Assembly (NCBI GenBank): GCA_964449015.1
Contig: CAYVBH010000002.1
Coordinates: 1 to 46,946 of the forward strand
Direction of reading: 5' to 3'
DNA from: an uncultured Bacteroidales bacterium
GTDB lineage: Bacteria > Bacteroidota > Bacteroidia > Bacteroidales > UBA10428
DNA: 46,946 nt
Of the stretch, positions 12,906 to 31,012 are shown in pieces. The position numbers and the translations under genes were made by a program. Position 1 is the first letter of the stretch. Each line of letters opens with the position of its first letter. The notes beneath the pieces were generated by a model. That model worked only from the letters and a program-made list of their open reading frames with translations, was not told where the DNA came from and searched no databases.

Positions 12906-13600
12906 ATGAAACCTTACCTAAAGCCCCCCCTGTTGGAGTTACTTGCAGTCTATCTCCTAACATCCTTGGTTTCCTGTGAGAAACCTACAATACCTGATGT
13001 ATCAACTGCACAAGTTACAGACATTACACAAACAGGTGCCATATCAGGAGGTAATGTAAAAAACAATGGAGGCGAGGAGGTTACTGCACGTGGCGCCTGC
13101 TGGAGCATTGCCAGAAATCCAACCATAGGCTCAAGTAAAACAACTGATGGTACTGGCAATGGTAATTTTGTCAGTAAAATTACCGGCTTATCAGCAAATA
13201 CTACCTACTATGTGCGTGCCTATGCTATAAACAGTGAGGGTATCGGATATGGAAATGAAGTAAGTTTTGAAACTCAAAAAGGTCCTCCGGAAGCAAACTT
13301 TACAGCTTCACCAACAACCATTACTGCTGGCCAGAGTGTGCAGTTTACTGACCAGTCCACGAATAATCCCACAAGCTGGAGCTGGAATTTCGGTGACGGA
13401 AGCACAGGCACATCACAAAATCCCTCACATACATACACCACAGTCGGAACTTTTACGGTCATCCTTACGGTAAACAACGATGCCGGATCGGACACGGAAA
13501 CGAAATCAAGCTATATTACCGTAAATGAGGCTATTGTTAAACCGGTAGCTGACTTCACAGCCTCTCCAACAACCATTACCGAAGGCCAGAGTGTGCAGTT
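12906..13600 (+). repeat. About 0.7-kb 5' block shared with paralog 3 (15259-15953)
   Basis: Constant offset of 2353 bp. By eye there are roughly 25 mismatches in about 700 bp. The similarity begins at the ATG and is absent from the upstream leader. Confidence 0.75.
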
Positions 13601-15188
13601 TACTGACCACTCTATGAATAATCCCACAAGCTGGAGCTGGAATTTCGGTGACGATAGCACAAGCACATCACAAAATCCTTCACATACATACACAAAAGCC
13701 GGAACCTACACGGTCATCCTTACAGTGACGAATAGTGCAGGTTCCGATACGGAAACAAAAACCGGTTATATAACGGTAAGCGTAGGTGTTGTTAAACCGG
13801 TAGCTGCCTTCACTGCCTCTCCGACAACCATTACTTCTGGCCAGAGTGTGCAGTTTACTGACCAATCCAAGAACAATCCAACAAGCTGGAGTTGGAGTTT
13901 TGGCGACGGGAGCACAAGCACATTACAAAATCCTTCACATACATACACTACACCAGGAACATATACAGTAAGCCTTACTTCTACCAACAGTGCCGGATCA
14001 GATACTAAAACGAAAACCAATTTCATTGCTTTAGTTGCTCCTCCGATAGCAGATTTCACAGTATCACAAACGAATATTAAAACAGGTCAGAGTGTACAGT
14101 TTACTGATCAATCCAAGAATAATCCCACAAGTTGGAGCTGGAATTTTGGCGACGGGGGTACAAGCACATCACAAAATCCTTCACATACATACACAGCATT
14201 AGGAACATATACAGTAAGCCTTACTTCCACCAACAGTGCCGGATCAGATACTGAAACGAAAACCAATTTCATTGTTGTTATAGCTCCTCCGGAAGCAGCT
14301 TTCACGGTATCACAAATGAATATTTCAGCAGGTCAGAGTATACAGTTTACTGACCAATCCAAGAATAATCCCACAAGCTGGAGCTGGAATTTTGGAGATG
14401 GAGTTACCAGTACTTTAAAAAGTCCCTCGCATATATATTCAGTGGCCGGAACATATACAGTAACATTAATAGCAACTAATAGTGCCGGATCAGACACTGA
14501 AACCAAAACGAAATATATAACTGTTAATCCGGAAACAACAGTTACAGATCGCGATGGTAATGTTTATAAAACAGTGAAAATCGGTAATCAGGTTTGGATG
14601 CAAGAGAATCTGAAAACAACCCATCTAAATGATGGAGTTGTGATTGAAAAAACTACTGAACAACGTGCATGGGATGATTTATCCTATAGCTCATATTGCT
14701 GGTACCGTAACGACGAAGCGGCTTACAAAAATATATACGGTGCGTTGTACAATTGGTATGCAGTGAATACTAATAGATTGTGTCCATCGGGTTGGCATGT
14801 ACCTACGGATGCTGAGTGGACAGTATTAGAAAATTTCCTCATTCAAAATGGTTATAATTATGATGGAACTACAACTGGAAACAAAATTGCGAAATCCTTG
14901 GCATCTGCCACTGGTTGGACTTCATCTACTGATCCCGGTACAGTTGGCAATAATGATTATCCTAATAAGAGAAATGCTTCTGGCTTTACAGGTCTTCCGG
15001 GAGGTTTACGGGTAGGAAGTGGAGATTCCGGTTTTGGCTATGTTGGTACTGAAGGAGAATGGTGGTCGTCTACGTCGTACTCAACAACAACTGCCTGGAA
15101 TCGAAGTCTATTCTACCTCAATAGCAAAGTTGGCAGATATTCTCCAAATAAGAAGAATGGATATTCTATTCGTTGTTTAAAAAATTAA
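12906..15188 (+). CDS. Lipoprotein paralog 2: one Fn3-like N-domain, five PKD repeats, and a canonical Fibrobacter-succinogenes-major-paralogous (FISUMP) C-terminal domain
   Basis: 760 aa with the same lipobox. The C-terminus 'VTDRDGNVYKTVKIGNQVWMQENL...YGALYNWYAV...CPSGWHVPTDAEW...SGFTGLPGG...WWSST...SIRCLKN' is the classic FISUMP pattern. Confidence 0.85.
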   Translation: MKPYLKPPLLELLAVYLLTSLVSCEKPTIPDVSTAQVTDITQTGAISGGNVKNNGGEEVTARGACWSIARNPTIGSSKTTDGTGNGNFVSKITGLSANTTYYVRAYAINSEGIGYGNEVSFETQKGPPEANFTASPTTITAGQSVQFTDQSTNNPTSWSWNFGDGSTGTSQNPSHTYTTVGTFTVILTVNNDAGSDTETKSSYITVNEAIVKPVADFTASPTTITEGQSVQFTDHSMNNPTSWSWNFGDDSTSTSQNPSHTYTKAGTYTVILTVTNSAGSDTETKTGYITVSVGVVKPVAAFTASPTTITSGQSVQFTDQSKNNPTSWSWSFGDGSTSTLQNPSHTYTTPGTYTVSLTSTNSAGSDTKTKTNFIALVAPPIADFTVSQTNIKTGQSVQFTDQSKNNPTSWSWNFGDGGTSTSQNPSHTYTALGTYTVSLTSTNSAGSDTETKTNFIVVIAPPEAAFTVSQMNISAGQSIQFTDQSKNNPTSWSWNFGDGVTSTLKSPSHIYSVAGTYTVTLIATNSAGSDTETKTKYITVNPETTVTDRDGNVYKTVKIGNQVWMQENLKTTHLNDGVVIEKTTEQRAWDDLSYSSYCWYRNDEAAYKNIYGALYNWYAVNTNRLCPSGWHVPTDAEWTVLENFLIQNGYNYDGTTTGNKIAKSLASATGWTSSTDPGTVGNNDYPNKRNASGFTGLPGGLRVGSGDSGFGYVGTEGEWWSSTSYSTTTAWNRSLFYLNSKVGRYSPNKKNGYSIRCLKN
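13275..14526 (+). repeat. Intragenic tandem array of 5 PKD-domain coding units, paralog 2
   Basis: Five FT(A/V)S..GQS(V/I)QFTD..WSW.FGD units. Confidence 0.85.
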
Positions 15189-15258: not shown

Positions 15259-17490
15259 ATGAAACCTTACCTAAAGATTCCCCTGTTGGAGTTACTTGCA
15301 GTCTATCTCCTAACATCCTTGGTTTCCTGTGAAAAACCGACAATACCTGATGTATCAACTGCACAAGTTACCGACATTACACAAACAGGTGCCATATCAG
15401 GAGGCAATGTAAAAAACAATGGAGGCGAGGAGGTTACTGCACGTGGTGCCTGCTGGAGCATTGCCAGAAATCCAACCATAGGCTCAAGTAAAACAACCGA
15501 TGGTACTGGCAATGGTATTTTTGTCAGTAAAATTACCGGCTTATCAGCAAATACTACCTACTATGTACGTGCCTATGCTATGAACAGTGAGGGTATCGGA
15601 TATGGAAATGAAGTAAGTTTTGAAACTCAAAAAGGTCCTCCAGAAGCAAACTTTACTGCTTCTCCAACAACCATTATTGCTGGCCAGAGTGTGCAGTTTA
15701 CTGACCAATCCACGAATAATCCCACAAGCTGGAGTTGGAATTTCGGTGACGAAAGCACAGGCACATCACAAAATCCCTCACATACATACACCACAGCAGG
15801 AACTTTTACGGTCAGCCTTACGGTAAACAACGATGCCGGATCGGACACGGAAACGAAATCAAGCTATATTACCGTAAATGAGGCTATTGTTAAACCGGTA
15901 GCTGACTTCACAGCCTCTCCGACAACCATTACAACTGGCCAGAGTGTGCAGTTTACTGACCAATCCACGAATAATCCCACAAGCTGGAGCTGGAATTTCG
16001 GTGACGGGGGCACAAGCACATCACAAAATCCTTCACATACATACACCATAGCAGGAACATTTACAGTAAGCCTTACGGTAAACAACGATGCCGGATCGGA
16101 CACGGAAACGAAATCAAACTATATTGCCATGGGTGGGCCTATTGCTAAACCGGTAGCTGCCTTCACAGCCTCTCCGACAACCATTACAGCTGGCCAGAGT
16201 GTGCAGTTTACTGACCAATCCAAGAACAATCCCACAAGCTGGAGCTGGAATTTTGGCGACGAAGGCACAAGCACATCACAAAATCCTTCACATACATACA
16301 CCACACCAGGAACATATACAGTAAGCCTTACTTCTACCAACAGTGCTGGATCAGACGCTGAAACGAAAACCAATTTCATTGTTGTTGTTGCTCCTCCGGA
16401 AGCAAACTTTACTGCTTCTCCGACAAGCATTACAGCTGGCCAGAGTGTGCAGTTTACTGACCAATCCAAGAACAATCCCACAAGCTGGAGCTGGAATTTT
16501 GGTGACGGGGGCACAAGCACATCACAAAATCCTTCACATACATACACAACATTAGGAACATATACAGTAAGCCTTACTTCCACCAACAGTGCCGGATCAG
16601 ATACTGAAACGAAAACCAATTTCATTGTTATTGGTGCTCCTCCGGTAACAGCTTTCACAGCCTCTCCGACAACTATTACTGCTGGCCAGAGTGTGCAGTT
16701 TACTGACCAATCCACGCATAATCCCACAAGCTGGAGCTGGAATTTTGGCGACGGTGGTACGAGCACATTAAGAAATCCTTCACATTTGTATTCAATAGCG
16801 GGATCTTATGCAGTTAGCCTTATGGTAACCAATAGTTTCGGATCAGATACTGAAATTAAATCTAATTATATTACTGTAGAAAAAATATGTCCAACTTCCA
16901 TAGTTGTAACCCACTTGACTGGATTAGTTGCGCCTGTGACCAAAACAGTAACATACGTAATAGCTGAAACAAACTTGTCTGGCGAAAATAAATGTTGGAT
17001 AACCAGTAATCTGGGTGCCGATAGACAGGCAAGTTCGGCTACTGATGCTAGTGAGGCGGCATCAGGCTGGTACTGGCAATTTAATCGGAAACAGGGCTAC
17101 AAACATGATGGGGCCACTCGCACACCAAATTCAGTCTGGATCACTCCTATAGATGAGAACAGTAATTGGACAATTGCCAACGACCCTTGCAATATTCTTC
17201 TTGGCACTGGTTGGCGTATCCCTACATATACGGAATGGAGTAATGTTGATAACAATGACAAATGGGAGGATTACAATGATACTTATGCATCAGTATTGAA
17301 GCTCCATGTTAACGGAGATTTAAACAATTCTGGTGAACTACATAGTAGAGGTTCTTATGGTTTCCGCTGGAGCAGTACACAATTCAGCAGCGTATACGGT
17401 TGGTACCTATCTTTCGCCAGTACTTACAGTGGTTTAGGCAACAATGGTTATAAGGCTTATGCACGCTCAATCCGCTGCATTAGAGACTGA
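15259..17490 (+). CDS. Lipoprotein paralog 3: one Fn3-like N-domain, five PKD repeats, and a C-terminal lectin-fold domain of the paralog-1 type
   Basis: 743 aa. The 5' third is close to paralog 2, PKD units 3-5 are essentially identical to paralog 1, and the C-terminal domain is a diverged copy of paralog 1's ('GWRIPTYTEW...RWSST...SIRCIRD'). Confidence 0.8.
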   Translation: MKPYLKIPLLELLAVYLLTSLVSCEKPTIPDVSTAQVTDITQTGAISGGNVKNNGGEEVTARGACWSIARNPTIGSSKTTDGTGNGIFVSKITGLSANTTYYVRAYAMNSEGIGYGNEVSFETQKGPPEANFTASPTTIIAGQSVQFTDQSTNNPTSWSWNFGDESTGTSQNPSHTYTTAGTFTVSLTVNNDAGSDTETKSSYITVNEAIVKPVADFTASPTTITTGQSVQFTDQSTNNPTSWSWNFGDGGTSTSQNPSHTYTIAGTFTVSLTVNNDAGSDTETKSNYIAMGGPIAKPVAAFTASPTTITAGQSVQFTDQSKNNPTSWSWNFGDEGTSTSQNPSHTYTTPGTYTVSLTSTNSAGSDAETKTNFIVVVAPPEANFTASPTSITAGQSVQFTDQSKNNPTSWSWNFGDGGTSTSQNPSHTYTTLGTYTVSLTSTNSAGSDTETKTNFIVIGAPPVTAFTASPTTITAGQSVQFTDQSTHNPTSWSWNFGDGGTSTLRNPSHLYSIAGSYAVSLMVTNSFGSDTEIKSNYITVEKICPTSIVVTHLTGLVAPVTKTVTYVIAETNLSGENKCWITSNLGADRQASSATDASEAASGWYWQFNRKQGYKHDGATRTPNSVWITPIDENSNWTIANDPCNILLGTGWRIPTYTEWSNVDNNDKWEDYNDTYASVLKLHVNGDLNNSGELHSRGSYGFRWSSTQFSSVYGWYLSFASTYSGLGNNGYKAYARSIRCIRD
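15628..16880 (+). repeat. Intragenic tandem array of 5 PKD-domain coding units, paralog 3
   Basis: Five PKD signatures in the translation. Confidence 0.85.
16200..16768 (+). repeat. 569-bp block almost identical to 11221-11789 (copy B)
   Basis: See copy A. The flanking sequence on both sides is much more diverged. Confidence 0.9.
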
Positions 17491-17542
17491 CCTTGTTAAG
17501 ATTCCATGGGATCGACATTACTTGAATAATAAAAATTACAGA

Positions 17543-18970
17543 ATGACAACTCGAATAATAACTATTTTTTGGTTGAATGTGTTGCTTTTTGGATCAGTTC
17601 AGGCCAAGGATAAATCATTAACAATTTATTTGCGTGGCGTTTATGAAAGTAAAATAAGCTTGCTGTCATTGACTGGACCAAATGCCCTAAAATCAATCGC
17701 AATAGTTGAAAGTGTAAAAAATGGAGAAGCAACAATACTTCAAGTATCCATGGATAATTTACCCGGTGAGTTTGTTTTGCGATTCGATTATAAAGAAAAT
17801 GCGGCAAGTACGCCTTACCCTTCTGAAAAGAGAATTGTAATATATAACCAGGATCTGAAACTATGGGTACATCCGATATACTGTAATAATACTGACAGTA
17901 CCTGGTTCCAGAATGATGAAAGAGAAAACACTACCTATGACCGGTTTCTTCAGGAAAATGGAAGGAATAAGCAGATGCTGGGTTTAATTCAAAATTTTTT
18001 GTTGAACTATGATAATCCTAATTCATCATTTTACCATGAGGGTATTACCGAGTACGAGAAAAGACGTGTAACCTATAATCAGTGGATTGCTGAACAAACC
18101 AATCAGTATAAAGCGCTGTTTGTAAGTAACTTGTTTGGATTCGAACTTGTACCGCAAATTGATTGGAAAGGAAACGAAGGCGATAGAAAACGAAGTTTAA
18201 GGGACAATTATTTTGATGGGATGGAATTCAGCGATTCACTTTTAATAAAAACCTCTATCTTGAAGGAATGGATGGATGGATATGTGAACCTGTATGGTGA
18301 ACTGGCCACTACCGTAGCCTTGCGTGATTCGCTTTTCACCCTTGCGGGAAAAATTGCTATTGAAAAGGCCCATACCGGGAATCCAAAGGTTTATGGATGG
18401 ATGGTTGATTATTTCTTCAACGGCTTTGAAAGTTATAATATTGAAAAAGGTATAAAAATGCTACAACAATACCTCGACGACCCCAATTGCTTAACAACCA
18501 AGCGTCAGGAAATAAACAAAAGGTTACAGGGAATAGAAACAATGGTTCCGGGGGCGATCGCTCCAAATATTATAATGTCGGACGCTCAAAACAAACCATT
18601 TGAGCTCAATGCTTATCAGACGGATGATATATACATACTTCTCCTTTTCTGGTCAGCAGACTGTAATCATTGCACAGAAACTGCCGGAGAATTGAATTCC
18701 TGGTATCACAATACGGAAGTGCAGGCTTTGTTGGATATTGTGGCCATCAGCCTTGACGAGACCGAAAATGAGATCCGGGCATGGCAACAAAAGAAAGAGG
18801 AACTCAGGGATTGGATACACCTGCGGGCAGAGGAAGGCGTGCGCAGCAAAGTTGCCGGTGACTATTATATACTGGGCATTCCCGTGATGATACTGGTAGA
18901 TGCCAGAACCAAAGAGATCATTGCCCTACCGGAAAATACAGAGCAATTAGATGATCTTTTAAATTTGTAA
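17543..18970 (+). CDS. Secreted protein with C-terminal TlpA/ResA-like thioredoxin-fold domain
   Basis: The ORF is open from 17444, but that start overlaps the preceding gene. The ATG at 17543 gives 'MTTRIITIFWLNVLLFGSVQA', a clean signal peptide. The C-terminus 'ILLLFWSADCNHCTE' carries the CxxC motif of thiol-disulfide oxidoreductases. Confidence 0.6.
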   Translation: MTTRIITIFWLNVLLFGSVQAKDKSLTIYLRGVYESKISLLSLTGPNALKSIAIVESVKNGEATILQVSMDNLPGEFVLRFDYKENAASTPYPSEKRIVIYNQDLKLWVHPIYCNNTDSTWFQNDERENTTYDRFLQENGRNKQMLGLIQNFLLNYDNPNSSFYHEGITEYEKRRVTYNQWIAEQTNQYKALFVSNLFGFELVPQIDWKGNEGDRKRSLRDNYFDGMEFSDSLLIKTSILKEWMDGYVNLYGELATTVALRDSLFTLAGKIAIEKAHTGNPKVYGWMVDYFFNGFESYNIEKGIKMLQQYLDDPNCLTTKRQEINKRLQGIETMVPGAIAPNIIMSDAQNKPFELNAYQTDDIYILLLFWSADCNHCTETAGELNSWYHNTEVQALLDIVAISLDETENEIRAWQQKKEELRDWIHLRAEEGVRSKVAGDYYILGIPVMILVDARTKEIIALPENTEQLDDLLNL

Positions 18971-19041: not shown

Positions 19042-19980
19042 TCACTGCGTTCCATTGGCAATAACTTCCCTGTATTCTTTTCTCGTCAACCCTTCAAAAA
19101 TAAAGTAGGAAGGATTCAGCGGTTTTCCATTTTTCCTGACTTCGTAATGCAAGTGGGGTCCGGAGCTTAAGCCTGTATCACCGACACGACCAATGATATC
19201 ACCTTTTTGTACTAGTTTATTATCGTATACTTCCAATCGGACGAGGTGACCATAGAAGGTCTGGTATCCAAATTTATGTTCAATCAGGCATGGCCGACCA
19301 TAACCAGCGCTAATGTGTTCCTCAATCATTTTTACTTTCCCGTTGGCCGGAGCCACCACAATCGTGCCTACAGGTGCTTGAATATCAATCCCGGTGTGCA
19401 TCCTGGGCTCATTTAGAATAGGATGATCACGCATGCCAAATCCGGAAACTATCCGGGCATCTTTTTTTGCAATGGGATATGCAGCCGGGATGGACCTAAA
19501 AATCTTCTTCTTGTTCTCAATGGATTTTATTAAGTCATTTATGCTGCTCTCCAACAGCTTCTGCTGACGATCGGACCTCATTGTTGTGGAATCATAATCC
19601 TTTGAAGACACGGCTGTTGCTTCAAACTCATTCATGTTTTCTGCGTATTGCCTGGCATAGTTCTTATATTGGCTGACAAATTCGTGGATTCGATCTATTT
19701 CAGGTGACTCCGTGTATATTAATTCATCATAGAGTTCATCAAAGAGGCGAATTTCATTGGTTAAGTTGTTGATTCTCTGGATTGATGCATCTATTGCCTC
19801 AGTTTGTTCTTTGGGAGTATTTTTTACCTCACGTTCTATTGAATTGAAATCATTCGCTTCTGGTTTAAACTTATAGATTAGAATAAAAACTATCGCAAGA
19901 ATTACGATAAGTACGACAATCATAATAACCAGGTTACCGGATCTATTTTCGCCGTCAGATGAGTCCTTGTTTGGATTCAT
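19042..19980 (-). CDS. Membrane-anchored M23 family metallopeptidase
   Basis: 312 aa with an N-terminal TM segment (LVIMIVVLIVILAIVFILI), a coiled-coil-like linker, and M23 motifs 'HTGIDIQAPVGT', 'GDTGLSSGPHLHYEV'. The gap to the upstream co-oriented gene is only 32 nt. Confidence 0.9.
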   Translation of the reverse strand: MNPNKDSSDGENRSGNLVIMIVVLIVILAIVFILIYKFKPEANDFNSIEREVKNTPKEQTEAIDASIQRINNLTNEIRLFDELYDELIYTESPEIDRIHEFVSQYKNYARQYAENMNEFEATAVSSKDYDSTTMRSDRQQKLLESSINDLIKSIENKKKIFRSIPAAYPIAKKDARIVSGFGMRDHPILNEPRMHTGIDIQAPVGTIVVAPANGKVKMIEEHISAGYGRPCLIEHKFGYQTFYGHLVRLEVYDNKLVQKGDIIGRVGDTGLSSGPHLHYEVRKNGKPLNPSYFIFEGLTRKEYREVIANGTQ

Positions 19981-21725: not shown

Positions 21726-22664
21726 CTAAAAATTCCAAACCAATTCAACAGCGCCACCCTCGTTGAGTGGGACAAAATTCATACTCATGGTTCGCTTAGC
21801 TTTTTGGAGCTTTTTCGTTTGAATAATAACCTGGGAAATACAAACCCCCGAAACAATCGCCGAGGCTATTCCCACTTTCCTGTAATTGGTATATTTTTTT
21901 TCCAGTTCATCAGTTCCTTCATTTTTCCAATCACCATAGGTACTATTATATTTAAGAAAGCAATATGCACTTATGCCAGCGGATGCAAGGGTTGCACCCA
22001 ACCAAATGTTCTTAAGATTTTTGTGTTTCTGCAGATCTTGCTCATTTCCTGTATTAATGGTAACTTCCTTTACAATCGTATTGAATGCATTGTTTTTACT
22101 ACTGCGCGCCATTAGTTCCACTTTGTAGGTGCCTCCTGACTTATATTTATGAGCAGGACTTTCCAGGGTTGATAAATTATTACCTGGTGATTTTAAATCC
22201 CCAAAGTTCCATGAATATAAATCAGCATTTCTTGATTTGTTTTCGAATTTTACTTCAAAGGGCGATTCTTTAGTCATAATCCTATACTCAAAACCCGCCA
22301 ATGGGTCACTTATTGGTTTGGCAACAACTTCAATGGTTACCCTATTGATATCACCCCTGAATTCATTTGGGAAGTCCCATAGTATTACTTTCTCGATGCC
22401 TGGCGCTACTTTACTACCCCAGGAACCAGTAAGCGTACTATCCTGAGGCTGAATTACCTGATTATTGTAATAAATCTTCAGGATTATATCAAAAAGCTGG
22501 GTTGAATCCGAAGAGGGCAGGTCATATTTTATTGCCAGCTGTTTGCCATCCAATGTAAGGTATCTGTTTACGTTGGAAACGTAAGTTGATTCCTGGCCAA
22601 TGAGGTAATTAAATGAAAAGGCCGTGAGGAATAACATATTGAAAAACCTGATTAAATATCTCAT
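21726..22664 (-). CDS. Signal-peptide protein with PKD domain and two C-terminal TM segments
   Basis: 312 aa. The PKD signature is 'FEVKFENKSRNADLYSWNFGD....SPAHKYKSGGTYKVEL'. The hydrophobic segments are IWLGATLASAGISAYCFL and VGIASAIVSGVCISQVII. It is the first gene of the co-oriented array ending in the M23 peptidase. Confidence 0.6.
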   Translation of the reverse strand: MRYLIRFFNMLFLTAFSFNYLIGQESTYVSNVNRYLTLDGKQLAIKYDLPSSDSTQLFDIILKIYYNNQVIQPQDSTLTGSWGSKVAPGIEKVILWDFPNEFRGDINRVTIEVVAKPISDPLAGFEYRIMTKESPFEVKFENKSRNADLYSWNFGDLKSPGNNLSTLESPAHKYKSGGTYKVELMARSSKNNAFNTIVKEVTINTGNEQDLQKHKNLKNIWLGATLASAGISAYCFLKYNSTYGDWKNEGTDELEKKYTNYRKVGIASAIVSGVCISQVIIQTKKLQKAKRTMSMNFVPLNEGGAVELVWNF

Positions 22665-22955: not shown

Positions 22956-23435
22956 ATGGGTAAACCCGCTGCACGCGTTGGTGATATGCATGTTTGCCCG
23001 ATGGTAACACCGGGAGTTCCTCCCATACCGCATGTTGGGGGGCCGATCCTGCCTCCGGGATGTCCTACCGTTCTTATCGGTGGCATGCCTGCAGCGGGAA
23101 TGGGAGATATGTGCACTTGTGTTGGCCCGCCTGATGTCATTGTGTTAGGTTCAACTGGTGTTTTTATTGGTGGCAAGCCGGCAGCACGCATGGGGGATCA
23201 AACATCACATGGCGGAGCCATTACATTGGGATGTCCTACTGTATTGATCGGAGAAACAGGCAGTGGTGGTTCAGGCGGAGGGGCCGCAGGCGGAGCCGGG
23301 GGAGGTGCAGGTAACGGCACAGGAGGCGGAGCAGTATCTGCTTCGGAGCCACCTCAGGTGCAAACCTTTAAAGCTGCAGCAAAAGATGGAACTCCATTCT
23401 GTGCCGAATGTGAGGCAGCCAAAAATAAGAAATAA
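22956..23435 (+). CDS. PAAR-domain T6SS spike-tip protein with Gly-rich linker and short C-terminal CxxC tail
   Basis: 159 aa with three PAAR-type motifs (KPAARVGD, MPAAGMGD, KPAARMGD). A Gly-rich linker spans residues about 101-127. The tail ends '...AAKDGTPFCAECEAAKNKK'. Confidence 0.9.
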   Translation: MGKPAARVGDMHVCPMVTPGVPPIPHVGGPILPPGCPTVLIGGMPAAGMGDMCTCVGPPDVIVLGSTGVFIGGKPAARMGDQTSHGGAITLGCPTVLIGETGSGGSGGGAAGGAGGGAGNGTGGGAVSASEPPQVQTFKAAAKDGTPFCAECEAAKNKK

Positions 23436-23460
23436 AGTTCGTTTTTAATATTTTACTGTG

Positions 23461-24000
23461 ATGGCACTTAACACTGATCAGGTCTCTGTTGAAATTGCAA
23501 AGGATAAAACAGTCCCTGATTTCTTATGGAATCGGGCCGAGGACAAAACCTGCAATTTATACGCTATTGTTGATTCAGCACGAAATGATGAAGTATTTCA
23601 ATATTTCCTTAATGATAAAATCGAATATAAGTCTCTTTTTGAAGGAAAAGCGGATGTAAAATTTTTCAGTGTTTCTGGTTTTTTAGTAGAGTGCAAAAGA
23701 GATTCAACCTTGTTCAACTGGCTTACTACTGAAGCATGGGGTAGCAGCTGTTCCGTATTCTTTTTATCTAAAGCTTCATTTAGTGAAGTTTTAAAGCATT
23801 TGCAGAAGTTTATCCGTGTTTATCTGGAAGACGATGATATAGTCTATTTTAGATTTTATGATCCGAGAGTTTTGCGTGTATATCTACCAACCTGTAATAG
23901 TAAGGAGATCAGGACTTTTTTTGGAGAAATAGAAAGTTTTTTTGTGGAAGGTGAGGATCAGAAGGTTATGATTGAATTTCAAAAAGATTCAATTTCTTAA
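23461..24000 (+). CDS. DUF4123-family protein (T6SS effector adaptor/chaperone family, Tap-1/TEC-like)
   Basis: 'LYAIVDSARNDEVFQYF' and 'VYFRFYDPRVLRVYLPTC' match the two hallmark DUF4123 blocks. I prefer the ATG at 23461 over the GTG at 23458 used by the ORF track. Confidence 0.8.
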   Translation: MALNTDQVSVEIAKDKTVPDFLWNRAEDKTCNLYAIVDSARNDEVFQYFLNDKIEYKSLFEGKADVKFFSVSGFLVECKRDSTLFNWLTTEAWGSSCSVFFLSKASFSEVLKHLQKFIRVYLEDDDIVYFRFYDPRVLRVYLPTCNSKEIRTFFGEIESFFVEGEDQKVMIEFQKDSIS

Positions 24001-24309
24001 ATATATGGATTAAAGATTATTTTGCACAAATTAACCTAATATCTTATTTCAAATGCCAAGTCATCTCTAAAAGATAATATATTACGTAATATGATTTAAT
24101 TTATCTGGTAGAATTAGGATGTTATTAATATTTATATTAAAATAAAATAATTATCATCAGCATTTTATTAAAAATCTGAATCTTGATATTAATGAGGATA
24201 AAGTATTAATATTTTATTTGTTTGGCAAATAGCTAGGCAACTTGAAAAATATAGGGGAAAAATGCATGTATATATTTGGTCATAACTTAACATGTATTCA
24301 GATTCGAAT
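24001..24309. other. Extremely AT-rich convergent spacer between the PAAR/DUF4123 arm and the vgrG cargo arm
   Basis: One 60-nt line I counted contains only 7 G/C. I saw no credible ORF and no clear hairpin. Confidence 0.7.
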
Positions 24310-25740
24310 TCAAATAGACGCTATTATAGGACGCAATCCAAGATTCTTTTTTAAGTACCAGTGTATTTCACATAAATCAGGTACATGTGAATGTCCCATT
24401 ATAAACACTGAAAATTTAGGTTTTTTATCTTTTAACTCTGAATATAATAAATCAATTGCAATGAGTTTCTTATTTATTGTAGTTTGTGAATCACCAATGA
24501 AATTCATAATCCTTTGCCAAACTAATTCTAAAGACCTAAATTCTGGAACTAGATATGCCAAGTCAGCAATAAAAGCACCTTGCCAATTTCCATCTTTGTT
24601 AACGGCTTCAAGTCTATGACCATGTTCTGCAAAAATATTATCTTCATAAAAATAAGCCATGCGGGCTTTCCTAAACCCTAATGCTTCATCCCATTTATTA
24701 TCTTTACTCCTCATTATATCAAGTAGATACGCGTCATGATTACCATGCAAATAAGTGATAATACCAAATTTCTCTAAAACATTAAATCTGCTAATTATTG
24801 AGTAATTTTGAGCCTCAATTCCAGTAATCCGATCCATCAATTTAGTTACCGCATCGTCTTCAAGTATTAGGCCTTCTTTACTATCATCAAAAAAAGTACC
24901 AATAGCGCCTATATTTTGCCATAATTCGTATAAATCACCTATTTGAATTACTTTTACCTTATCAAAATATTTATTCTTTACAATAAAGGAAATGACAAGA
25001 TCTAAAAAGCAAACTAACGATTCTCCAGCATTCTTAAATATATCAGCTTCTATACTTTGAATATATTCTTGGTAACGAATATATTTTTGACTAGAAGGAA
25101 TACCCCTTGCAATATCTTTATTATGACTATCATACATTTGGTTAAGTTCAGTTTGAGTAATATCTTTAAATTCATCTCTATATCTAATTTTAGGTAAGTG
25201 CATGTCTGGAAGAAAAATATAGATAGAATTAGATTGCGGAGGATTTTCAATTATCTCAGCCCATTTAACTATCTCTATAGCTCCTCCAACTTTTTTAGTT
25301 ATTGGTTCTCCTTGATCGCTCCAATCAAAGTGAATATCACTGTAATGGCCAAAATGTGACCAAAACTCATGAAATATTGGATCTGTAATTGAAAAGATAT
25401 CCGATGGTACTATGGGTATATGTGCTTGTTTATAGTTAAACTTGCAAAGTAAAACACATTTCTTATAAACAATACCAAAGTATCTTTTATCACCAGCCCA
25501 AACGCCGACATCTAAATATATAAAATAATTCACGTTGGGACTTAAAGGTGTTTTGTCCGATCTATTTGATGCAATTCGTGATATACTTACTTCCTTTTCT
25601 TTTACCGTAAAATCAATTCTAGGAGTATATTCTTTTAACCAATCAGTAAATGTCAAACCCTCAATAGTATTATAATTTGGATTATATTCAAGCACGATAT
25701 TTTCAATCTTTGCGTTTTCCATGATCAGACTGTTTGACAT
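24310..25740 (-). CDS. Calcineurin-like metallophosphoesterase with a ~170-aa N-terminal domain of unknown function (candidate T6SS cargo)
   Basis: 476 aa. All five MPE motifs are present in order: 'LPDMHLP' (DxH), 'IGDLYELW' (GD), 'LHGNHDAYL' (GNHD), 'AEHGHRLE' (H), 'IMGHSHVP' (GHxH). It is the last gene of the vgrG-downstream array. Confidence 0.8.
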   Translation of the reverse strand: MSNSLIMENAKIENIVLEYNPNYNTIEGLTFTDWLKEYTPRIDFTVKEKEVSISRIASNRSDKTPLSPNVNYFIYLDVGVWAGDKRYFGIVYKKCVLLCKFNYKQAHIPIVPSDIFSITDPIFHEFWSHFGHYSDIHFDWSDQGEPITKKVGGAIEIVKWAEIIENPPQSNSIYIFLPDMHLPKIRYRDEFKDITQTELNQMYDSHNKDIARGIPSSQKYIRYQEYIQSIEADIFKNAGESLVCFLDLVISFIVKNKYFDKVKVIQIGDLYELWQNIGAIGTFFDDSKEGLILEDDAVTKLMDRITGIEAQNYSIISRFNVLEKFGIITYLHGNHDAYLLDIMRSKDNKWDEALGFRKARMAYFYEDNIFAEHGHRLEAVNKDGNWQGAFIADLAYLVPEFRSLELVWQRIMNFIGDSQTTINKKLIAIDLLYSELKDKKPKFSVFIMGHSHVPDLCEIHWYLKKNLGLRPIIASI

Positions 25741-25759: not shown

Positions 25760-26395
25760 TTATAATCCATGTACTTCTTTAAGTTTATCTTTTGTCTCTT
25801 TATTTATTTTTCCGGTAATCTCAAGATTATGATTTTTTTGAAACTTCTTAAGAGCTTCTCCCATTTTTGAATTAAATTGACCATTAATCATCCCGCAATC
25901 AAATCCAAGATTATTAAGTCGTTCCTGAATTCCAGAAATTGTTTCCAAAGGATCTAGATTTCCTATATTTAAAATATAAGTAATAAGATTAGTATCATCT
26001 TCAACAATTAGCTTAGCTTTTTTTATATTTGGTGGTATTGAGATATTTAATACTCCATTTGAGCTTAATTTTCCTTCAGTAATATTTCCACCAATTTCCA
26101 ACTTATATGATGCATTTTTCATCTCTTCATTATCATAACTAAAAATCTTTAAGCATAATTTAGCTGGTACTCCTTTCATTTTAAAACGATTGCGCTTGTC
26201 GAAAAAGGCAATTTCATTTTTCTGATCTTTTTCTGGTATAAACACTCTATCTCCTTCAAACAATATACTCGGATCCTTTCTTAATTCTTTTAATGAAGCG
26301 TTCTTTGTATGATCCCAAATCGTCTTCGGAAAGAATCCAAATTTGAATGCAATACTATTTATACAGTCACCCTGTTTTACAATGTATTCCAGCAT
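25760..26395 (-). CDS. LysM - beta-rich middle - PG_binding_1 three-part protein
   Basis: 211 aa. The N-terminal LysM is 'YIVKQGDCINSIAFKFGF...GDRVFIP'. The C-terminal 'GIQERLNNLGFDCGMINGQFNSKMGEALKKFQKNHNL' is a typical PG_binding_1 helix bundle. I recognise no catalytic motif. Confidence 0.8.
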   Translation of the reverse strand: MLEYIVKQGDCINSIAFKFGFFPKTIWDHTKNASLKELRKDPSILFEGDRVFIPEKDQKNEIAFFDKRNRFKMKGVPAKLCLKIFSYDNEEMKNASYKLEIGGNITEGKLSSNGVLNISIPPNIKKAKLIVEDDTNLITYILNIGNLDPLETISGIQERLNNLGFDCGMINGQFNSKMGEALKKFQKNHNLEITGKINKETKDKLKEVHGL

Positions 26396-26406
26396 ATTTA
26401 AAATCT

Positions 26407-26706
26407 TTATTCCATAAGTACCTCCCAGGCATCTTTATCCAATTTTGGAAAAGTTATTTGACAATTTCCAGCATCAATGCCATCAATCCTAATCAAACCT
26501 AAAGAATTAGTAAAGCCACTGACTTCAGCACCATCAGGTAAGGTAAGTAAATACTCAACTCCGACAATTCCTTTCCCATCCTCGCCCACCATCTCAATTT
26601 CAACGAAATGAAAATCACATGATTGTTTTGAACTACCGGTATTTGGACTACTGTTGTTTGCAGCATCTCCACTGCTTTTCAGGTTGCTATTGGATTTTAT
26701 GGCCAT
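26407..26706 (-). CDS. Small hypothetical protein (disordered N-terminus + beta-sandwich-like core)
   Basis: 99 aa. The core 'FVEIEMVGEDGKGIVGVEYLLTLPDGAEVSGFTNSLGLIRIDGIDAGNCQITFP' resembles small Big/carboxypeptidase-regulatory-like sandwiches. It is tightly packed, with gaps of 11-12 nt on both sides. Confidence 0.5.
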   Translation of the reverse strand: MAIKSNSNLKSSGDAANNSSPNTGSSKQSCDFHFVEIEMVGEDGKGIVGVEYLLTLPDGAEVSGFTNSLGLIRIDGIDAGNCQITFPKLDKDAWEVLME

Positions 26707-26718
26707 GTTTTAATTCAT

Positions 26719-27090
26719 TTACGATAACTTTTTGTTTTCATCAGAACGTTTTAGTACCTCTTGGTATAGTTTGCCAATCCTGATACTTGGATTAGGCTCT
26801 TTCTTATCCATTAATATCGCTAGCATCCATGCATTTTCAGGCTTTTTATCGAAATCCATTCCAAAAAATATCGATATGTTGAGAAATTTGCATATATCCC
26901 GTTCAGTAATTAATTCATATTCTCCAGCCCGTTGAATTATTTCCAGTATGTTTTTTCTTAATTGGCCATCATCCATTGCCTTGCTTTCTATTGGGAAATA
27001 CTTCCTGACATGAATCATCATGTTTTCAATAAATTGTTTCATTGCCAGTTCATCAAATACCTGGACTTGTTCTTTTCGGATCGTTAGCAT
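26719..27090 (-). CDS. Small hypothetical cytoplasmic protein (candidate immunity or accessory protein)
   Basis: 123 aa, predicted helical, with no signal peptide. It lies directly downstream of the 432-aa gene. Confidence 0.5.
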   Translation of the reverse strand: MLTIRKEQVQVFDELAMKQFIENMMIHVRKYFPIESKAMDDGQLRKNILEIIQRAGEYELITERDICKFLNISIFFGMDFDKKPENAWMLAILMDKKEPNPSIRIGKLYQEVLKRSDENKKLS

Positions 27091-27158: not shown

Positions 27159-28457
27159 CTATTGATAATCGTTTATAAAATTATAATATATGTAAGTTTT
27201 GTTGGATAGCAGCTTATTGAAAGCATCATTTTTAGGAAATATAGGGCTTTCATCAGGCAAAAAATAAACTGGGATTTCACGTCTTATAGGTCTAGTTGCT
27301 TTACCGAAACAATTTTGTGCAAAAATTTCGACTATTTGAATATTTTCGGCCACTATTCTACCTGTTCCAGTGCTCTGTTCAATATTAACTATCAAAGAAA
27401 TGAATAATTCATTTCTATTTTTTTCTAGATTTAAATCCAAAGGATTATAATATTCTCCGAAACGCATCTGTTTTACTTGTTTTGTTTGTGGACCCGAAAT
27501 TTTCTTGGTGCGGGAAAAACCCTTTGTCCCTCTATCGAACATAGTAGGATCTGGTTTTGTTCCAAATAGATAATTATATTCTGCGGTGACCTTTTGGCGT
27601 AGAATATTTTCGCTACTAAAAATATCAATTTTAAGGATGCCCATAAAAACCTTAACAGTGGGAGCGCTTATTTTTTGGGCATTGAAAAATATACTATATA
27701 TCTCTAATAAGGATTCCGCATTACCGATATTGCAACCCCTTATGGCAATATTATTTAATTTTTTATTCTGGATATCTGAAATAAGCTTAATAAAATTACT
27801 CATCCATGTTTGAGAAGCTTTTGACTCAGGAGGTAACCCAAGCTTTTTTATTATATCTTCTTGATGTTTTAAAATTTTACCATTCCATTTTTTAGTCAAT
27901 TCATTGATCCTTTTCTCATTTGGTTTTTTTTTATATTCTTTTAATTCTCCATTGATTTCATCATTAAATTCCGATTGAGTATTATTGTATAATCCCAAAT
28001 CCTTTAATTCTTGCAATGTTGATTCAGCATTATCTGTATTATAATGTTTTGTTATTATGTTTAAAACATCTAGCCAATCATCAAGGTTTTTCGAAGATTT
28101 AATATTAGAATAAATTCTCTCTACCGCAGCATAACGTAAGATATAGAATAATCCCTCATAAGATTTGACATTTTTTTCCCCTTCTATAAAGGAGAAAGAG
28201 GTCATTCCTGCATCACTATTTCCATGTGAAAATATCAGAATATTTCGCTCTGAAATATTATTAATTCTTTGTAACAAATTGAAATAAGTTGGATGACTTA
28301 TAATTTCAGCGTGCCTAATGGAGATTTTGTGATCAGACCGGAATGTATCATAATATCTTTTTGCATAAGGACACCCCTTCGCTATGAAAGCATAGTAAAT
28401 TGGATAATTACTATTATCAGAAGAACTTTGTTTAGGGTTGACTTTTATTTTAGACAT
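27159..28457 (-). CDS. Hypothetical 432-aa protein with His-Gly ... Cys motif pair (candidate T6SS cargo)
   Basis: A long, uninterrupted, very AT-rich ORF. 'NILIFSHGNSDAG' and 'NNIAIRGCNIGNAESLL' each follow a hydrophobic strand. I recognise no other family motif. Confidence 0.6.
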   Translation of the reverse strand: MSKIKVNPKQSSSDNSNYPIYYAFIAKGCPYAKRYYDTFRSDHKISIRHAEIISHPTYFNLLQRINNISERNILIFSHGNSDAGMTSFSFIEGEKNVKSYEGLFYILRYAAVERIYSNIKSSKNLDDWLDVLNIITKHYNTDNAESTLQELKDLGLYNNTQSEFNDEINGELKEYKKKPNEKRINELTKKWNGKILKHQEDIIKKLGLPPESKASQTWMSNFIKLISDIQNKKLNNIAIRGCNIGNAESLLEIYSIFFNAQKISAPTVKVFMGILKIDIFSSENILRQKVTAEYNYLFGTKPDPTMFDRGTKGFSRTKKISGPQTKQVKQMRFGEYYNPLDLNLEKNRNELFISLIVNIEQSTGTGRIVAENIQIVEIFAQNCFGKATRPIRREIPVYFLPDESPIFPKNDAFNKLLSNKTYIYYNFINDYQ

Positions 28458-28483
28458 ATTATAAAAAAAAGAAAATTATCTAT

Positions 28484-29143
28484 TTAAGGCATGGTAAGTT
28501 TTTGTCCAGGAATAATCAAATCCGGGTGAAAATTCATACCGCTTGCCTTCCAGATGATGTCCCACAGGTTTGCATATCCATAATACTTGAGAGCAATTTT
28601 TGACAATGTATCGCCGCTAATTACGGTATAGGGCTTATTATATAAAAATGTAAACGGAGGAGCAAAACTGGCAGGCATATCTGCACCAACAACATCAATC
28701 ATTTTCCATGTTGCCATCCATCTGAAAAAATTCTGACTTAATGGATGTTTCCTGAACTCTTTTTCGGCATTTTCTGAAATGGTTATTGTCATTACCCGGG
28801 CTTTTTCAACCAACAGCGAAGCAAGCTGAAAAAGCTCAGTTTGGCTTTCAGTCACGGATGGAATGAGATCTGACTGTTTCACCAGTTTTAATAAATTGTC
28901 AATACTTTCTGTTGTGTATGGAGTATTGGTACTATTTAGCGCTTCCAGTATTTTTTGTCTCAGGTCTTCTTCAACGACTTCCAGGTATTTGTCTAATTGT
29001 TCATCATTAAGCGGAAGATGAGCAAATTGCATATGTCCATGACGGACAGGGAATTTCTTAAAAAGAGATTGCACTTTGTAGTCATCAAATCCGCTTAATA
29101 TAAATCTTTGACTTAATGTTATGGCATATGAAGTAAGTTGCAT
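28484..29143 (-). CDS. VgrG-adjacent protein with C-terminal LysM domain
   Basis: 219 aa with a helical N-terminal ~165 aa. The C-terminal LysM is 'YTVISGDTLSKIALKYYGYANLWDIIWKASGMNFHPDLIIPGQKL'. It lies 24 nt downstream of vgrG. Confidence 0.75.
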   Translation of the reverse strand: MQLTSYAITLSQRFILSGFDDYKVQSLFKKFPVRHGHMQFAHLPLNDEQLDKYLEVVEEDLRQKILEALNSTNTPYTTESIDNLLKLVKQSDLIPSVTESQTELFQLASLLVEKARVMTITISENAEKEFRKHPLSQNFFRWMATWKMIDVVGADMPASFAPPFTFLYNKPYTVISGDTLSKIALKYYGYANLWDIIWKASGMNFHPDLIIPGQKLTMP

Positions 29144-29167: not shown

Positions 29168-31012
29168 TTAGTTGATCATCACCATACTTCCTTTCACGGT
29201 CATCACGCCACTGGAAGAGACCTCTGCAGTGGCGCCTCCGGTGGCTTTTAAAGAAGCATTGGCTTTAATTTCAACCGATGTGGCTTTCGCTTCAAGGCTG
29301 GTTTGAGCTTCATTCTTAATATCCATGGCCTTTTGTTCTAAAGTGGTCTGAGCTTCGGATATAATTTCATTGGCTTTCTGCTCAAGTCCCTGCCCCGCTT
29401 CGATTCTTATACCATTTTGTGCTTTGATCTCAATATCCTTGGCTTCAATTGTCAGTTTTTCAGTAGCCTTGATTTTAATCTCCCCGCTTGCAGCATCGAG
29501 GGTTATTTCATTTTTATTGCTTGTATCATAAATCCTGATCTTTTCCTTGCCTGATTCATCATGCAATTCAATCGTCTGCCCGCTCACTGTGCGGATGGCA
29601 TGAATTTTGGCATCCTTGTCGTTGTAATCGCCCGTCCAGGCTGAATCGGGAGGATAGGTTTCATCGAAAAATGCACCGATGCAATAAGGCCTTTCCACAT
29701 CACTGCCTTCAAAAGCGACCATAACCCTAGTGTTTACCGACAGGACAAAATAAATACCCGAATTTTCCCTTGTATAAGGGGTAACCACATTGATCCATGG
29801 AGTCATCAAACTGTCGCTCTCCATCCAGGGGAAATGAATCCGTACCCTGCCCAGCTTTTTTGGATCCTGGTTGTCTGCAATTGTCCCGACCTGGTTAGGA
29901 GAGAGCTTTATAAAATATGGATTCGTATTCTCAGGAATTTTTATTTTCTCCGGAACAGCATTAAAAGTATTATTATAAGAAAGCAGGTTATCGAAACTAT
30001 GCTGAATTGAAGTAATCAAATAATTCCCATAATCAATTTGAGGATCTGAAGGTTTCTGATTAGGGTAAAAAACCTTGATATATGTTCCGGCTGTCATAAA
30101 AGGATTTATCGAAGAACCAGACAAGTCTGAAAGGTTTGATGCATCACTTTCTTCGTCATGTTCTCCTGCTTTGTCGATCGCTTTTTGATAATCATTTTCA
30201 TTCACATTCAGCGATTTATAATAATGTATCCCTTCAAACTGGAAAAAGTCTTTTGATTTGTCAAGAGCAAATTTCCCATAATCGTTTAAAGTGCCGTCCG
30301 CTTTACCTGTACCTGATTTAAACTTATAGATGTCGGTTTTTAAGGGATCCATCGACATAAGGCTGAATTTTACAGGGCTTACCCTTAGTTGATAATTGAG
30401 ATCTTTAAGGTCATACCCGATTGTCAGTTTTTGTTCTTTCCTGGGTTCAGGCAATTCCCCGAAGATCATCTTGTCCCCGTTGAAAAAAAACCATTCTCCA
30501 TACCTGATGGAGAGCCGTTTCAGAAATTCCAGGTCACTTTCCTCATATTGTACGATATAAGGATAGCGAAATTTGTCACGCGGTTTAACAACGGCTTTGA
30601 ATGGATAAGGTCTAAAAACCTCTTTTACAATTTCCTCAAGGGTTTTATCCATAAACACTCTGTTTGTAGGTTTACCTGTAAGGGAGATTTCTACAGAGCC
30701 TCCGGTAATCAATATTTTGTCACTGTCTTCCATGCCACTCCTTGATCCTTGTATCTCTGTCACATATCCTTTCATAAGCACAACATCCTTCTCATCCTCC
30801 TTGACCTGAACTTTGGTTTGAATGATAATTGGCGAACCCAGAAAATTTTTCGCTTTATTTATCAGAAATTCATCAAGTTTTTCTATTGCATCATACCGGC
30901 AAGTAATTTCAAAACTGTCAATACCATAAATATTATCATTGATGGAAACAGATTCAAAATCTTTCAGCGGTTTCCCATCAATTTCTATGTCAATTTTTAA
31001 AATGGTTCCCAT
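29168..31012 (-). CDS. vgrG: Type VI secretion spike protein VgrG (TssI)
   Basis: 614 aa with a gpD-like N-terminus and a gp5 OB-fold-like middle (GTIADNQDPKKLGRVRIHFPWM). The C-terminal beta-helix repeats read IKIKATEKLTIEAKDIEIKAQNGIRIEAGQ... It is preceded by hcp. Confidence 0.9.
   Translation of the reverse strand: MGTILKIDIEIDGKPLKDFESVSINDNIYGIDSFEITCRYDAIEKLDEFLINKAKNFLGSPIIIQTKVQVKEDEKDVVLMKGYVTEIQGSRSGMEDSDKILITGGSVEISLTGKPTNRVFMDKTLEEIVKEVFRPYPFKAVVKPRDKFRYPYIVQYEESDLEFLKRLSIRYGEWFFFNGDKMIFGELPEPRKEQKLTIGYDLKDLNYQLRVSPVKFSLMSMDPLKTDIYKFKSGTGKADGTLNDYGKFALDKSKDFFQFEGIHYYKSLNVNENDYQKAIDKAGEHDEESDASNLSDLSGSSINPFMTAGTYIKVFYPNQKPSDPQIDYGNYLITSIQHSFDNLLSYNNTFNAVPEKIKIPENTNPYFIKLSPNQVGTIADNQDPKKLGRVRIHFPWMESDSLMTPWINVVTPYTRENSGIYFVLSVNTRVMVAFEGSDVERPYCIGAFFDETYPPDSAWTGDYNDKDAKIHAIRTVSGQTIELHDESGKEKIRIYDTSNKNEITLDAASGEIKIKATEKLTIEAKDIEIKAQNGIRIEAGQGLEQKANEIISEAQTTLEQKAMDIKNEAQTSLEAKATSVEIKANASLKATGGATAEVSSSGVMTVKGSMVMIN

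Follow-up and report, generated by a model that had tools for sequence, protein, structure and literature searches.

A predicted LpxH-like metallophosphoesterase at the end of a Bacteroidota-type VI secretion cargo array is coupled to a peptidoglycan-binding partner module

Effector catalogues for type VI secretion systems (T6SS) consist mostly of peptidoglycan hydrolases, lipases, nucleases, NADases and pore formers, and antibacterial effectors are almost always encoded next to an immunity gene. Among the described systems closest to the locus reported here are effectors recruited through small peptidoglycan-binding modules. LysM and PG_binding_1 are among six domain families that occur in vgrG loci as stand-alone proteins, as C-terminal parts of VgrG or as N-terminal fusions to the toxin (PMC10673891), and binding of a downstream effector to its VgrG depended on a stand-alone LysM protein (Wang et al. 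2023, Commun Biol, PMC10673891). Here we analyze a 46,946-nucleotide stretch of DNA from an uncultured Bacteroidales bacterium (assembly GCA_964449015.1, contig CAYVBH010000002.1, positions 1 to 46,946; hereafter the window), in which the last gene of a T6SS cargo array (24310..25740, minus strand) encodes a 476-amino-acid LpxH-like metallophosphoesterase, a putative T6SS cargo protein that we refer to below as the enzyme. The locus shares with the published group the order vgrG, LysM/PG-binding gene, cargo, and the same three encoding forms: stand-alone, VgrG C-terminal and cargo N-terminal. It differs in that the published cargo is typically a peptidoglycan hydrolase (Lyz-like, NlpD or NlpC/P60) with an immunity protein, whereas here the cargo is a predicted phosphoesterase with no detectable immunity gene, and is accompanied by a second small module, W99, and a DUF4123 adaptor. 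The delivery logic, adaptor-assisted VgrG cargo, is known already; the catalytic family, its tight coupling to W99 and the PG-binding protein W211, and the missing immunity gene are new.

Toxins that degrade lipid II, namely the colicin M family and TelC of the type VII secretion system (T7SS) (PMC5555719), are comparable in functional concept only: they are exported enzymes that cut the pyrophosphate of a lipid-linked precursor outside the cytoplasm, as we hypothesize for the enzyme. Their folds are unrelated to that of the enzyme, and each kind comes with immunity proteins dedicated to it. Bioinformatic work has also put forward putative T6SS effectors that contain a metallophosphatase domain; they are likened to the enzyme by description only. 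A full-text literature search returned no characterized T6SS effector with a calcineurin-like phosphoesterase fold and no LpxH-like effector, and we know of no characterized effector with that fold. The reading that we favor, with moderate confidence and on the strength of sequence comparison and a structure model, is that the enzyme is an active binuclear metallophosphoesterase of an undescribed family, has a core closest to LpxH and serves as a cargo effector of the surrounding Bacteroidota-type T6SS.

The enzyme is read from an ATG start on the minus strand; the initial annotation of the window gave no strand, and the plus-strand translation of the same interval is riddled with stop codons. 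All five motifs listed in that annotation (DMH, GDLYELW, GNHD, GH and GHSH) are present in canonical metallophosphoesterase order, and the full ordered pattern did not arise in any of 200,000 shuffles of the protein. Conservation at these positions was counted over 153 family representatives with mutual identity of at most 50%. Motif I (D179-M-H181; 25198..25206, on the minus strand like all motifs) retains its D and H in 148 of 148 aligned representatives. Motif II (G268-DLYELW-274; 24919..24939) aligns to GDLFEAW of E. coli LpxH and keeps D269 in 150 of 152, while the N and H of motif III (G333-N-H-D336; 24733..24744) are found in 152/152, as is H373 of motif IV (E372-H-G-H-R376, or EHGHR; 24613..24627). 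Motif V (G449-H-S-H452; 24385..24396) has H450 in 152/152 and H452 in 151/151. The seven canonical ligands (D179, H181, D269, N334, H373, H450 and H452), plus H335, are therefore essentially invariant, and an alignment of 49 diverse full-length members has D179, H181, G268, D269, G333-N-H-D336, E372-H-G374 and H450 without exception.

Placing this protein in a family took several routes. Searched against Pfam, NCBIfam and PDB sequences, it returned no metallophosphoesterase match even at E=10, so the assignment needed profiles and a structure model. Searches of PADLOC and PHROGs with the enzyme, and of PDB sequences with the family profiles A1 and A2, gave no relevant match, and tblastn of the enzyme against plasmids gave none. 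A word-indexed search of 5.8 billion proteins recovered six relatives of 26-40% identity, all with every motif invariant; two further searches of this kind yielded almost no additional relatives. An exhaustive hidden Markov model (HMM) search with an alignment of these first relatives found 508 clusters at E <=1e-3 and 71 at <=1e-30, counted at 50% identity. Pfam Metallophos (PF00149) is weakly matched by 13 of the 49 relatives at E <=0.01 (best 2.9e-5), no other domain recurs, and one member carries the JGI name calcineurin-like phosphoesterase. Some relatives are much longer (880-1190 amino acids; P0125, P0137, P0088, P0146 and others) owing to N-terminal extensions of 300-900 residues, in which we found no Pfam domain among the ten longest and no match to W211, W99, PAAR or VgrG.

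A first AlphaFold model, from 7 sequences, had a mean predicted local distance difference test score (pLDDT) of 68.9 and gave no fold match. The model from the 49-sequence alignment reached a pLDDT of 84.4 and a predicted template modeling score (pTM) of 0.86, and in it every motif lies just after a beta strand. Its predicted secondary structure is compatible with a beta-alpha-beta sandwich fold, and its top Foldseek matches in PDB and BFVD are mostly phosphoesterases, all at E >1e-3 and with low TM-scores. Judged by conservation and the model together, the enzyme belongs to the metallophosphoesterase superfamily as a genuine, highly diverged member under strong constraint. The family it belongs to appears to be undescribed, being invisible to Pfam and NCBIfam yet comprising about 500 clusters. 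The earlier suggestion of probable catalytic competence is supported by the family-wide invariance of the ligands, by the weak Metallophos matches among relatives and by the predicted position of the motifs at strand ends.

The initial annotation had also noted that motif II resembles that of LpxH, and the comparison with other phosphoesterases points the same way. In hhalign, the family profile matched E. coli LpxH with a probability of 91% (P=1.1e-6), the alignment starting at motif II, reaching motif V and spanning 158 columns. The corresponding P values were 0.003-0.04 for E. coli YfcE, CpdA, ApaH, SbcD and YaeI, 0.06-0.1 for PphA and 0.3-0.5 for UshA, against 0.17-0.62 for unrelated controls, and the preference for LpxH over these seven other E. 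coli enzymes held with three different profiles (P 1e-6 to 1e-5). Foldseek on the better model ranked E. coli LpxH (5wly) first, with E=2.4e-3 and probability 0.91, while the third to fifth ranks were PAPP5 and ApaH at E of about 0.2; against the viral library (BFVD), the best matches were non-significant and mostly phosphoesterases. LpxH was also the commonest weak NCBIfam match among members (4/49, E >=0.037). LpxH thus appears, from profile and model comparisons, to be the nearest known phosphoesterase to the catalytic core of the enzyme.

The two proteins have the seven metal-ligand positions in common, a near-identical motif II (GDLYELW in the enzyme, GDLFEAW in LpxH) and a motif II-to-V spacing that can be aligned over those 158 columns. 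Between motifs IV and V the enzyme has a predicted three-helix insertion (residues 386-437; 24430..24585, minus strand), delimited from the secondary structure of the model and the span of the hhalign match, at the site where LpxH has its lipid-binding cap; the likeness, as far as the model goes, would be one of position only. There are clear differences as well. The enzyme has 476 amino acids, twice as many as LpxH with its one domain of about 240. It adds an invariant beta domain at the N-terminus, carries some 80 inserted residues between motifs I and II and a further insertion between II and III, and reads GNHD rather than GNRD at motif III. It is encoded in a T6SS cargo array and not among lipid A genes. 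It does not reach the curated cut-off of the LpxH model (NCBIfam NF003743, UDP-2,3-diacylglucosamine diphosphatase), to which it has no match at all. We rejected an LpxH orthologue given the size, the added N-terminal domain, the insertions, the GNHD motif, the failure against curated models and the T6SS rather than lipid A context. Since the reaction of LpxH itself is biosynthetic, a toxin built on this core would need a different substrate.

The first ~170 residues had been proposed as a delivery or docking domain, an idea that our results do not bear out. Residues 70-165 form a family-specific beta domain (25246..25533, minus strand) with invariant D77, G79, W81 and F88; they are conserved across the family, modeled at pLDDT 96-97 and packed into one globule with the rest of the protein (pTM as above), and disorder in the model is confined to residues 32-66. 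From the alignment and the model, the N-terminal region is an integral domain of the family and not a swappable docking or delivery domain. We also asked whether it could correspond to the C-terminal sheet of LpxH, displaced by circular permutation. With the domain placed at the C-terminus, the hhalign match became neither longer nor better, and the domain alone aligned at background, so the sequence lends this idea no support.

More likely determinants of delivery are the separate genes upstream, W99 and W211. The W211 gene (25760..26395, minus strand) lies 19 bp upstream of the enzyme gene. Its 211-amino-acid product begins with a LysM-like region, continues with a beta domain and finishes with PG_binding_1 (Pfam E=1.5e-12). 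Searching the neighborhoods of homologues for a conserved partner, as had been suggested, led to this gene. The neighborhood set comprised 16 loci from genomes and assemblies and 80 metagenome loci. After dereplication at 80% identity, 62 clusters had 700 bp or more of sequence upstream, and in 49 of them a W211 homologue directly precedes the enzyme gene or is fused to it. Fusions of three kinds link these parts. One, seen in six representatives and L008, joins W211 to the enzyme's N-terminus; another, seen in L010 and 10 of the 80 metagenome loci, places W211 at the VgrG C-terminus. In the third, found in several of these latter loci, the evolved VgrG reads VgrG (1-690), W99-like (725-840), W211-like (858-1040), followed by the enzyme gene, an order that mirrors the separate genes W99, W211 and enzyme in the window. 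W211 has no signal peptide, and no convincing Sec signal was found in any of the 153 enzyme-family representatives. We consider W211 a conserved partner and putative VgrG-cargo adaptor or co-effector. A second W211 copy follows a PAAR gene downstream of the enzyme in L025/L026, and tandem enzyme paralogues occur in L093 (7830-9971 and 12193-14088) and L094 (4002-6962 and 7992-9089).

W99 (99 amino acids; 26407..26706, minus strand) has homologues elsewhere among the domains that extend VgrG and PAAR proteins at their C-termini. Upstream of it lies W123 (123 amino acids, without a family match; 26719..27090, minus strand), which recurs in L001, L003, L015, L037, L050 and L104; its homologues stand beside DUF4123 or W99 (L015 5884-6351, L001 15668-16072, L050 1201-1674), so W123 may be a co-adaptor. 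The W99-W211 pair is also found before other genes on annotated plasmids. In Thiodictyon pTs485 (L108, 6471-12725) it is followed by a 390-amino-acid HExxH protein and by HEAT and DcrB-related genes, and in Eleftheria terrae (L109, 8418-12440) by a 924-amino-acid hypothetical protein. The same module before different cargo indicates that the gene after W211 occupies an exchangeable slot, and suggests a general rule for finding effectors.

In the window, the minus strand carries an uninterrupted string of clpV, tssB, tssC, two hcp genes, vgrG, genes for proteins of 219, 432, 123, 99 and 211 amino acids, and the enzyme gene, with intergenic gaps of 11-130 bp. The enzyme gene is the final member, followed by a convergent gene, as had been described. 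TssN, TssO and a gp25-like TssE are encoded nearby, which identifies the locus as a Bacteroidota-type T6SS. The vgrG gene at the head of the cargo array (29168..31012, minus strand) was recognized by Pfam Phage_base_V and Phage_GPD, and the enzyme gene is downstream of it inside the T6SS cluster. GC content falls from about 42% in the T6SS core genes to 29% in the upstream neighbor of the enzyme and 31% in the enzyme gene, as expected of exchangeable cargo.

Related loci show the same association. For 28 dereplicated clusters the upstream flank was 5 kb or longer; 15 of these have a T6SS marker, and 12 have VgrG, no more than 6 kb from the enzyme homologue, whereas by a rough estimate about 1% of random genes would have VgrG within that distance. 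One T6SSiii locus (L068) reads ClpV, TssB, TssC, Hcp, Hcp, VgrG, PAAR, W211, enzyme, DUF4123. Homologues of the enzyme are strongly enriched next to vgrG, PAAR and DUF4123 genes, in addition to the fusions, in agreement with the earlier idea of an effector. Taken together, the enzyme is genetically and physically coupled to a PG-binding spike-extension module and to T6SS spike and adaptor genes, and it is probably adaptor-loaded T6SS cargo.

On the other side of the enzyme gene are a PAAR gene (22956..23435, plus strand) and a DUF4123 adaptor gene (23458..24000, plus strand; Pfam E=3.6e-26), which ends 309 bp from the 3' end of the enzyme gene. The initial annotation had described the DUF4123 gene as convergent and as the next gene after the end of the array. 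It is convergent; it is more than a boundary, as at least 11 loci have a DUF4123 gene adjoining the 3' end of the homologue. In L001, L015 and 8 metagenome loci DUF4123 comes right after the homologue, and in L078 the two genes are convergent, as in the window. In Acidobacteriota-type loci the gene directly downstream is an FHA-DUF4123 fusion of 345-352 amino acids (L001 11556-12593, L015 4715-5773, L033, L044 and L103). An inversion as the origin of the PAAR-DUF4123 orientation was considered and set aside, since a repeat search gave only short, chance-level repeats. At 55%, the GC content of the PAAR gene is above that of both the window (40%) and the DUF4123 gene next to it (34%). Ser/Thr kinase-FGE-sulfatase genes were seen near the enzyme gene in L003, L007 and L008.

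The initial annotation reported no adjacent immunity gene, and wider searching agrees. The convergent gap between the DUF4123 and enzyme genes (24001..24309, 309 bp, 22% GC) contains no plausible immunity open reading frame (ORF), its sole ORF being 34 amino acids long. No conserved downstream immunity family was found in 76 dereplicated loci, and clustering of neighbors and downstream ORFs over 93 loci returned no conserved family beyond W211, W99, W123, VgrG, DUF4123, PAAR and DcrB/Eag-like genes. The DcrB-family gene downstream of the enzyme in L011 and L013 matches PF08786 (DUF1795), the Eag accessory family, and is therefore not an immunity protein. Small polytopic membrane ORFs (112-168 amino acids, 2-4 predicted helices) are located right downstream of the enzyme in five or six distant loci (L032 9345-9683; L059 9597-10016; L040 2232-2597; L041 3109-3615; L091 1392-1778). 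BLAST detected no relatedness among them, and they could be immunity proteins.

We propose that W99 and W211 would lengthen the VgrG spike and keep the enzyme attached there, in the manner reported for stand-alone LysM proteins, and that DUF4123 may help to load the enzyme onto VgrG/PAAR. The loaded enzyme would then be fired into prey, where the PG_binding_1 domain could keep the complex at the cell wall. There, in the prey periplasm, we speculate that the enzyme cuts a phosphoanhydride or phosphodiester bond in a lipid-linked envelope intermediate, with lipid II, undecaprenyl pyrophosphate (undecaprenyl-PP) or a related carrier as candidate substrates. A periplasmic lipid-linked pyrophosphate or phosphodiester is suggested by the PG-binding domain of its partner W211 and by the nearest relative, LpxH, which cleaves a sugar-pyrophosphate lipid. 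Such a substrate would be absent from the cytoplasm of the producer, which would explain why no immunity gene accompanies the enzyme. More speculatively, the membrane ORFs downstream in a few distant loci also favor an extracytoplasmic target. A more far-reaching form of the proposal is that these proteins are the first T6SS toxin family with a metallophosphoesterase fold: an LpxH-derived pyrophosphatase, tethered to the prey cell wall by a PG-binding co-effector, that would destroy lipid-linked precursors of the wall or envelope (lipid II or undecaprenyl-PP carriers) in the periplasm. The family would extend over Bacteroidota, Acidobacteriota, Armatimonadota and Myxococcota and would do without dedicated immunity. 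This we hold only tentatively and regard as doubtful.

Several points weigh against an active LpxH-like T6SS effector. The enzyme itself has no curated family match, and its structural alignment to 5wly is poor (TM-scores of 0.19 by query and 0.35 by target, with a root-mean-square deviation of 14 A). Only 2-8 sequences went into the ad hoc neighborhood HMMs, and ORF calling was mechanical. No T6SS marker lies within 6 kb in 13 of the 28 long-flank clusters; in L004, for example, the gene is between TonB-dependent receptor genes, and in L006 it is beside a histidine kinase gene. No immunity gene was found beside the enzyme, against the usual rule for antibacterial effectors. As to the substrate, our speculative choice draws solely on the nearest relative and on the domain of the partner.

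The missing immunity gene bears most directly on where such a protein might act. A toxin working in the prey cytoplasm, on soluble nucleotides, nucleotide sugars (UDP-GlcNAc, UDP-MurNAc-pentapeptide) or nucleic acids, would be in keeping with LpxH, which cleaves a UDP-linked substrate on the cytoplasmic side, with the nucleases and nucleotide phosphodiesterases among metallophosphoesterases, and with weak Foldseek matches that include ApaH and phage Mre11-like proteins. We consider it unlikely, however, because such a toxin would poison its producer, yet an immunity gene is neither adjacent nor conserved in the 76 dereplicated loci; its W211 partner carries a peptidoglycan-binding domain, and the hhalign scores against SbcD, ApaH and CpdA are near background. 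The same absence would be no difficulty for a secreted protein that rides on the spike without being a toxin, either an envelope-modifying aid to penetration or an effector on eukaryotic or other non-self lipids, for which immunity is unnecessary. Such a role would suit L001 and L015, where the gene is placed between spike/adaptor genes and further adaptor-effector modules, and the superfamily does include lipid enzymes of the sphingomyelin phosphodiesterase type. Against it, W99-W211 elsewhere precedes toxin-like cargo, such as the HExxH protein in Thiodictyon, the stand-alone LysM adaptor described from Ketobacter alkanivorans works with a toxic effector that has an immunity protein, and no association with eukaryotes is evident for these soil and sediment metagenome lineages. 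We rate this explanation as distinctly unlikely.

That about half of the long-flank loci have no T6SS marker within 6 kb could also mean that W211 and the enzyme form a housekeeping envelope module with an incidental position in the T6SS cluster. This seems very unlikely to us: both proteins lack a signal peptide, even though W211 includes a domain for binding PG; covalent fusions of W211 to VgrG occur in the loci listed above; VgrG is near the homologue in far more clusters than the rough chance estimate allows; and the array has the low GC content of exchangeable cargo. The FHA-DUF4123 fusions directly after the homologue in several Acidobacteriota loci, together with the Ser/Thr kinase genes near the enzyme in three loci and weak Foldseek matches to PP1, PP5 and PAPP5, raise the thought of a regulatory Ser/Thr protein phosphatase of the T6SS, as in the PpkA/PppA/Fha pathway. 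We give this almost no credence. The alignment to PphA, a PPP-type enzyme, is at background; motif II is GDxxExW, as in LpxH, and not the PPP form GDxVDRG, nor are the PPP motifs GDxHG/GDxVDRG/GNHE matched as a set; and fusions to VgrG and to the PG-binding adaptor favor a secreted protein. Both the regulatory phosphatase and the nuclease readings were rejected on the hhalign scores.

For the reading we prefer, that of an LpxH-like T6SS cargo effector, the consequence is an enzyme family tied to the spike through a modular set of W99-W211 adaptors, which serves other cargo as well. If it does attack a pyrophosphate-linked envelope precursor, it would represent a new T6SS killing mechanism and a natural probe for an antibiotic-relevant step, and would raise the question of how producers escape self-intoxication without an immunity gene. 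The synteny rule VgrG, W99, W211, cargo offers a practical handle for finding more unannotated effectors.

Two further low-GC genes of the array (27159..29143, minus strand) are situated between vgrG and the conserved cassette and have no counterpart in related loci. One encodes the 432-amino-acid protein (27159-28457, minus strand), for which we found no Pfam, PDB or locus homologue, and the other the 219-amino-acid protein (28484-29143, minus strand), in which a LysM domain occupies the C-terminus. The two may represent a second cargo together with its adaptor. Elsewhere in the window, two PKD-repeat paralogues lie in tandem on the plus strand (12906-15188 and 15259-17490), each with five PKD repeats, the first of them terminating in a Fib_succ_major domain. 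They are followed by a gene for a 508-amino-acid thioredoxin-like/AhpC-TSA protein (17444-18970). An M23 peptidase gene (19042-19980, minus strand) adjoins tssO and tssN, and a 312-amino-acid PKD-domain protein with a signal-peptide-like N-terminus is encoded between tssN and the PAAR gene (21726-22664, minus strand).

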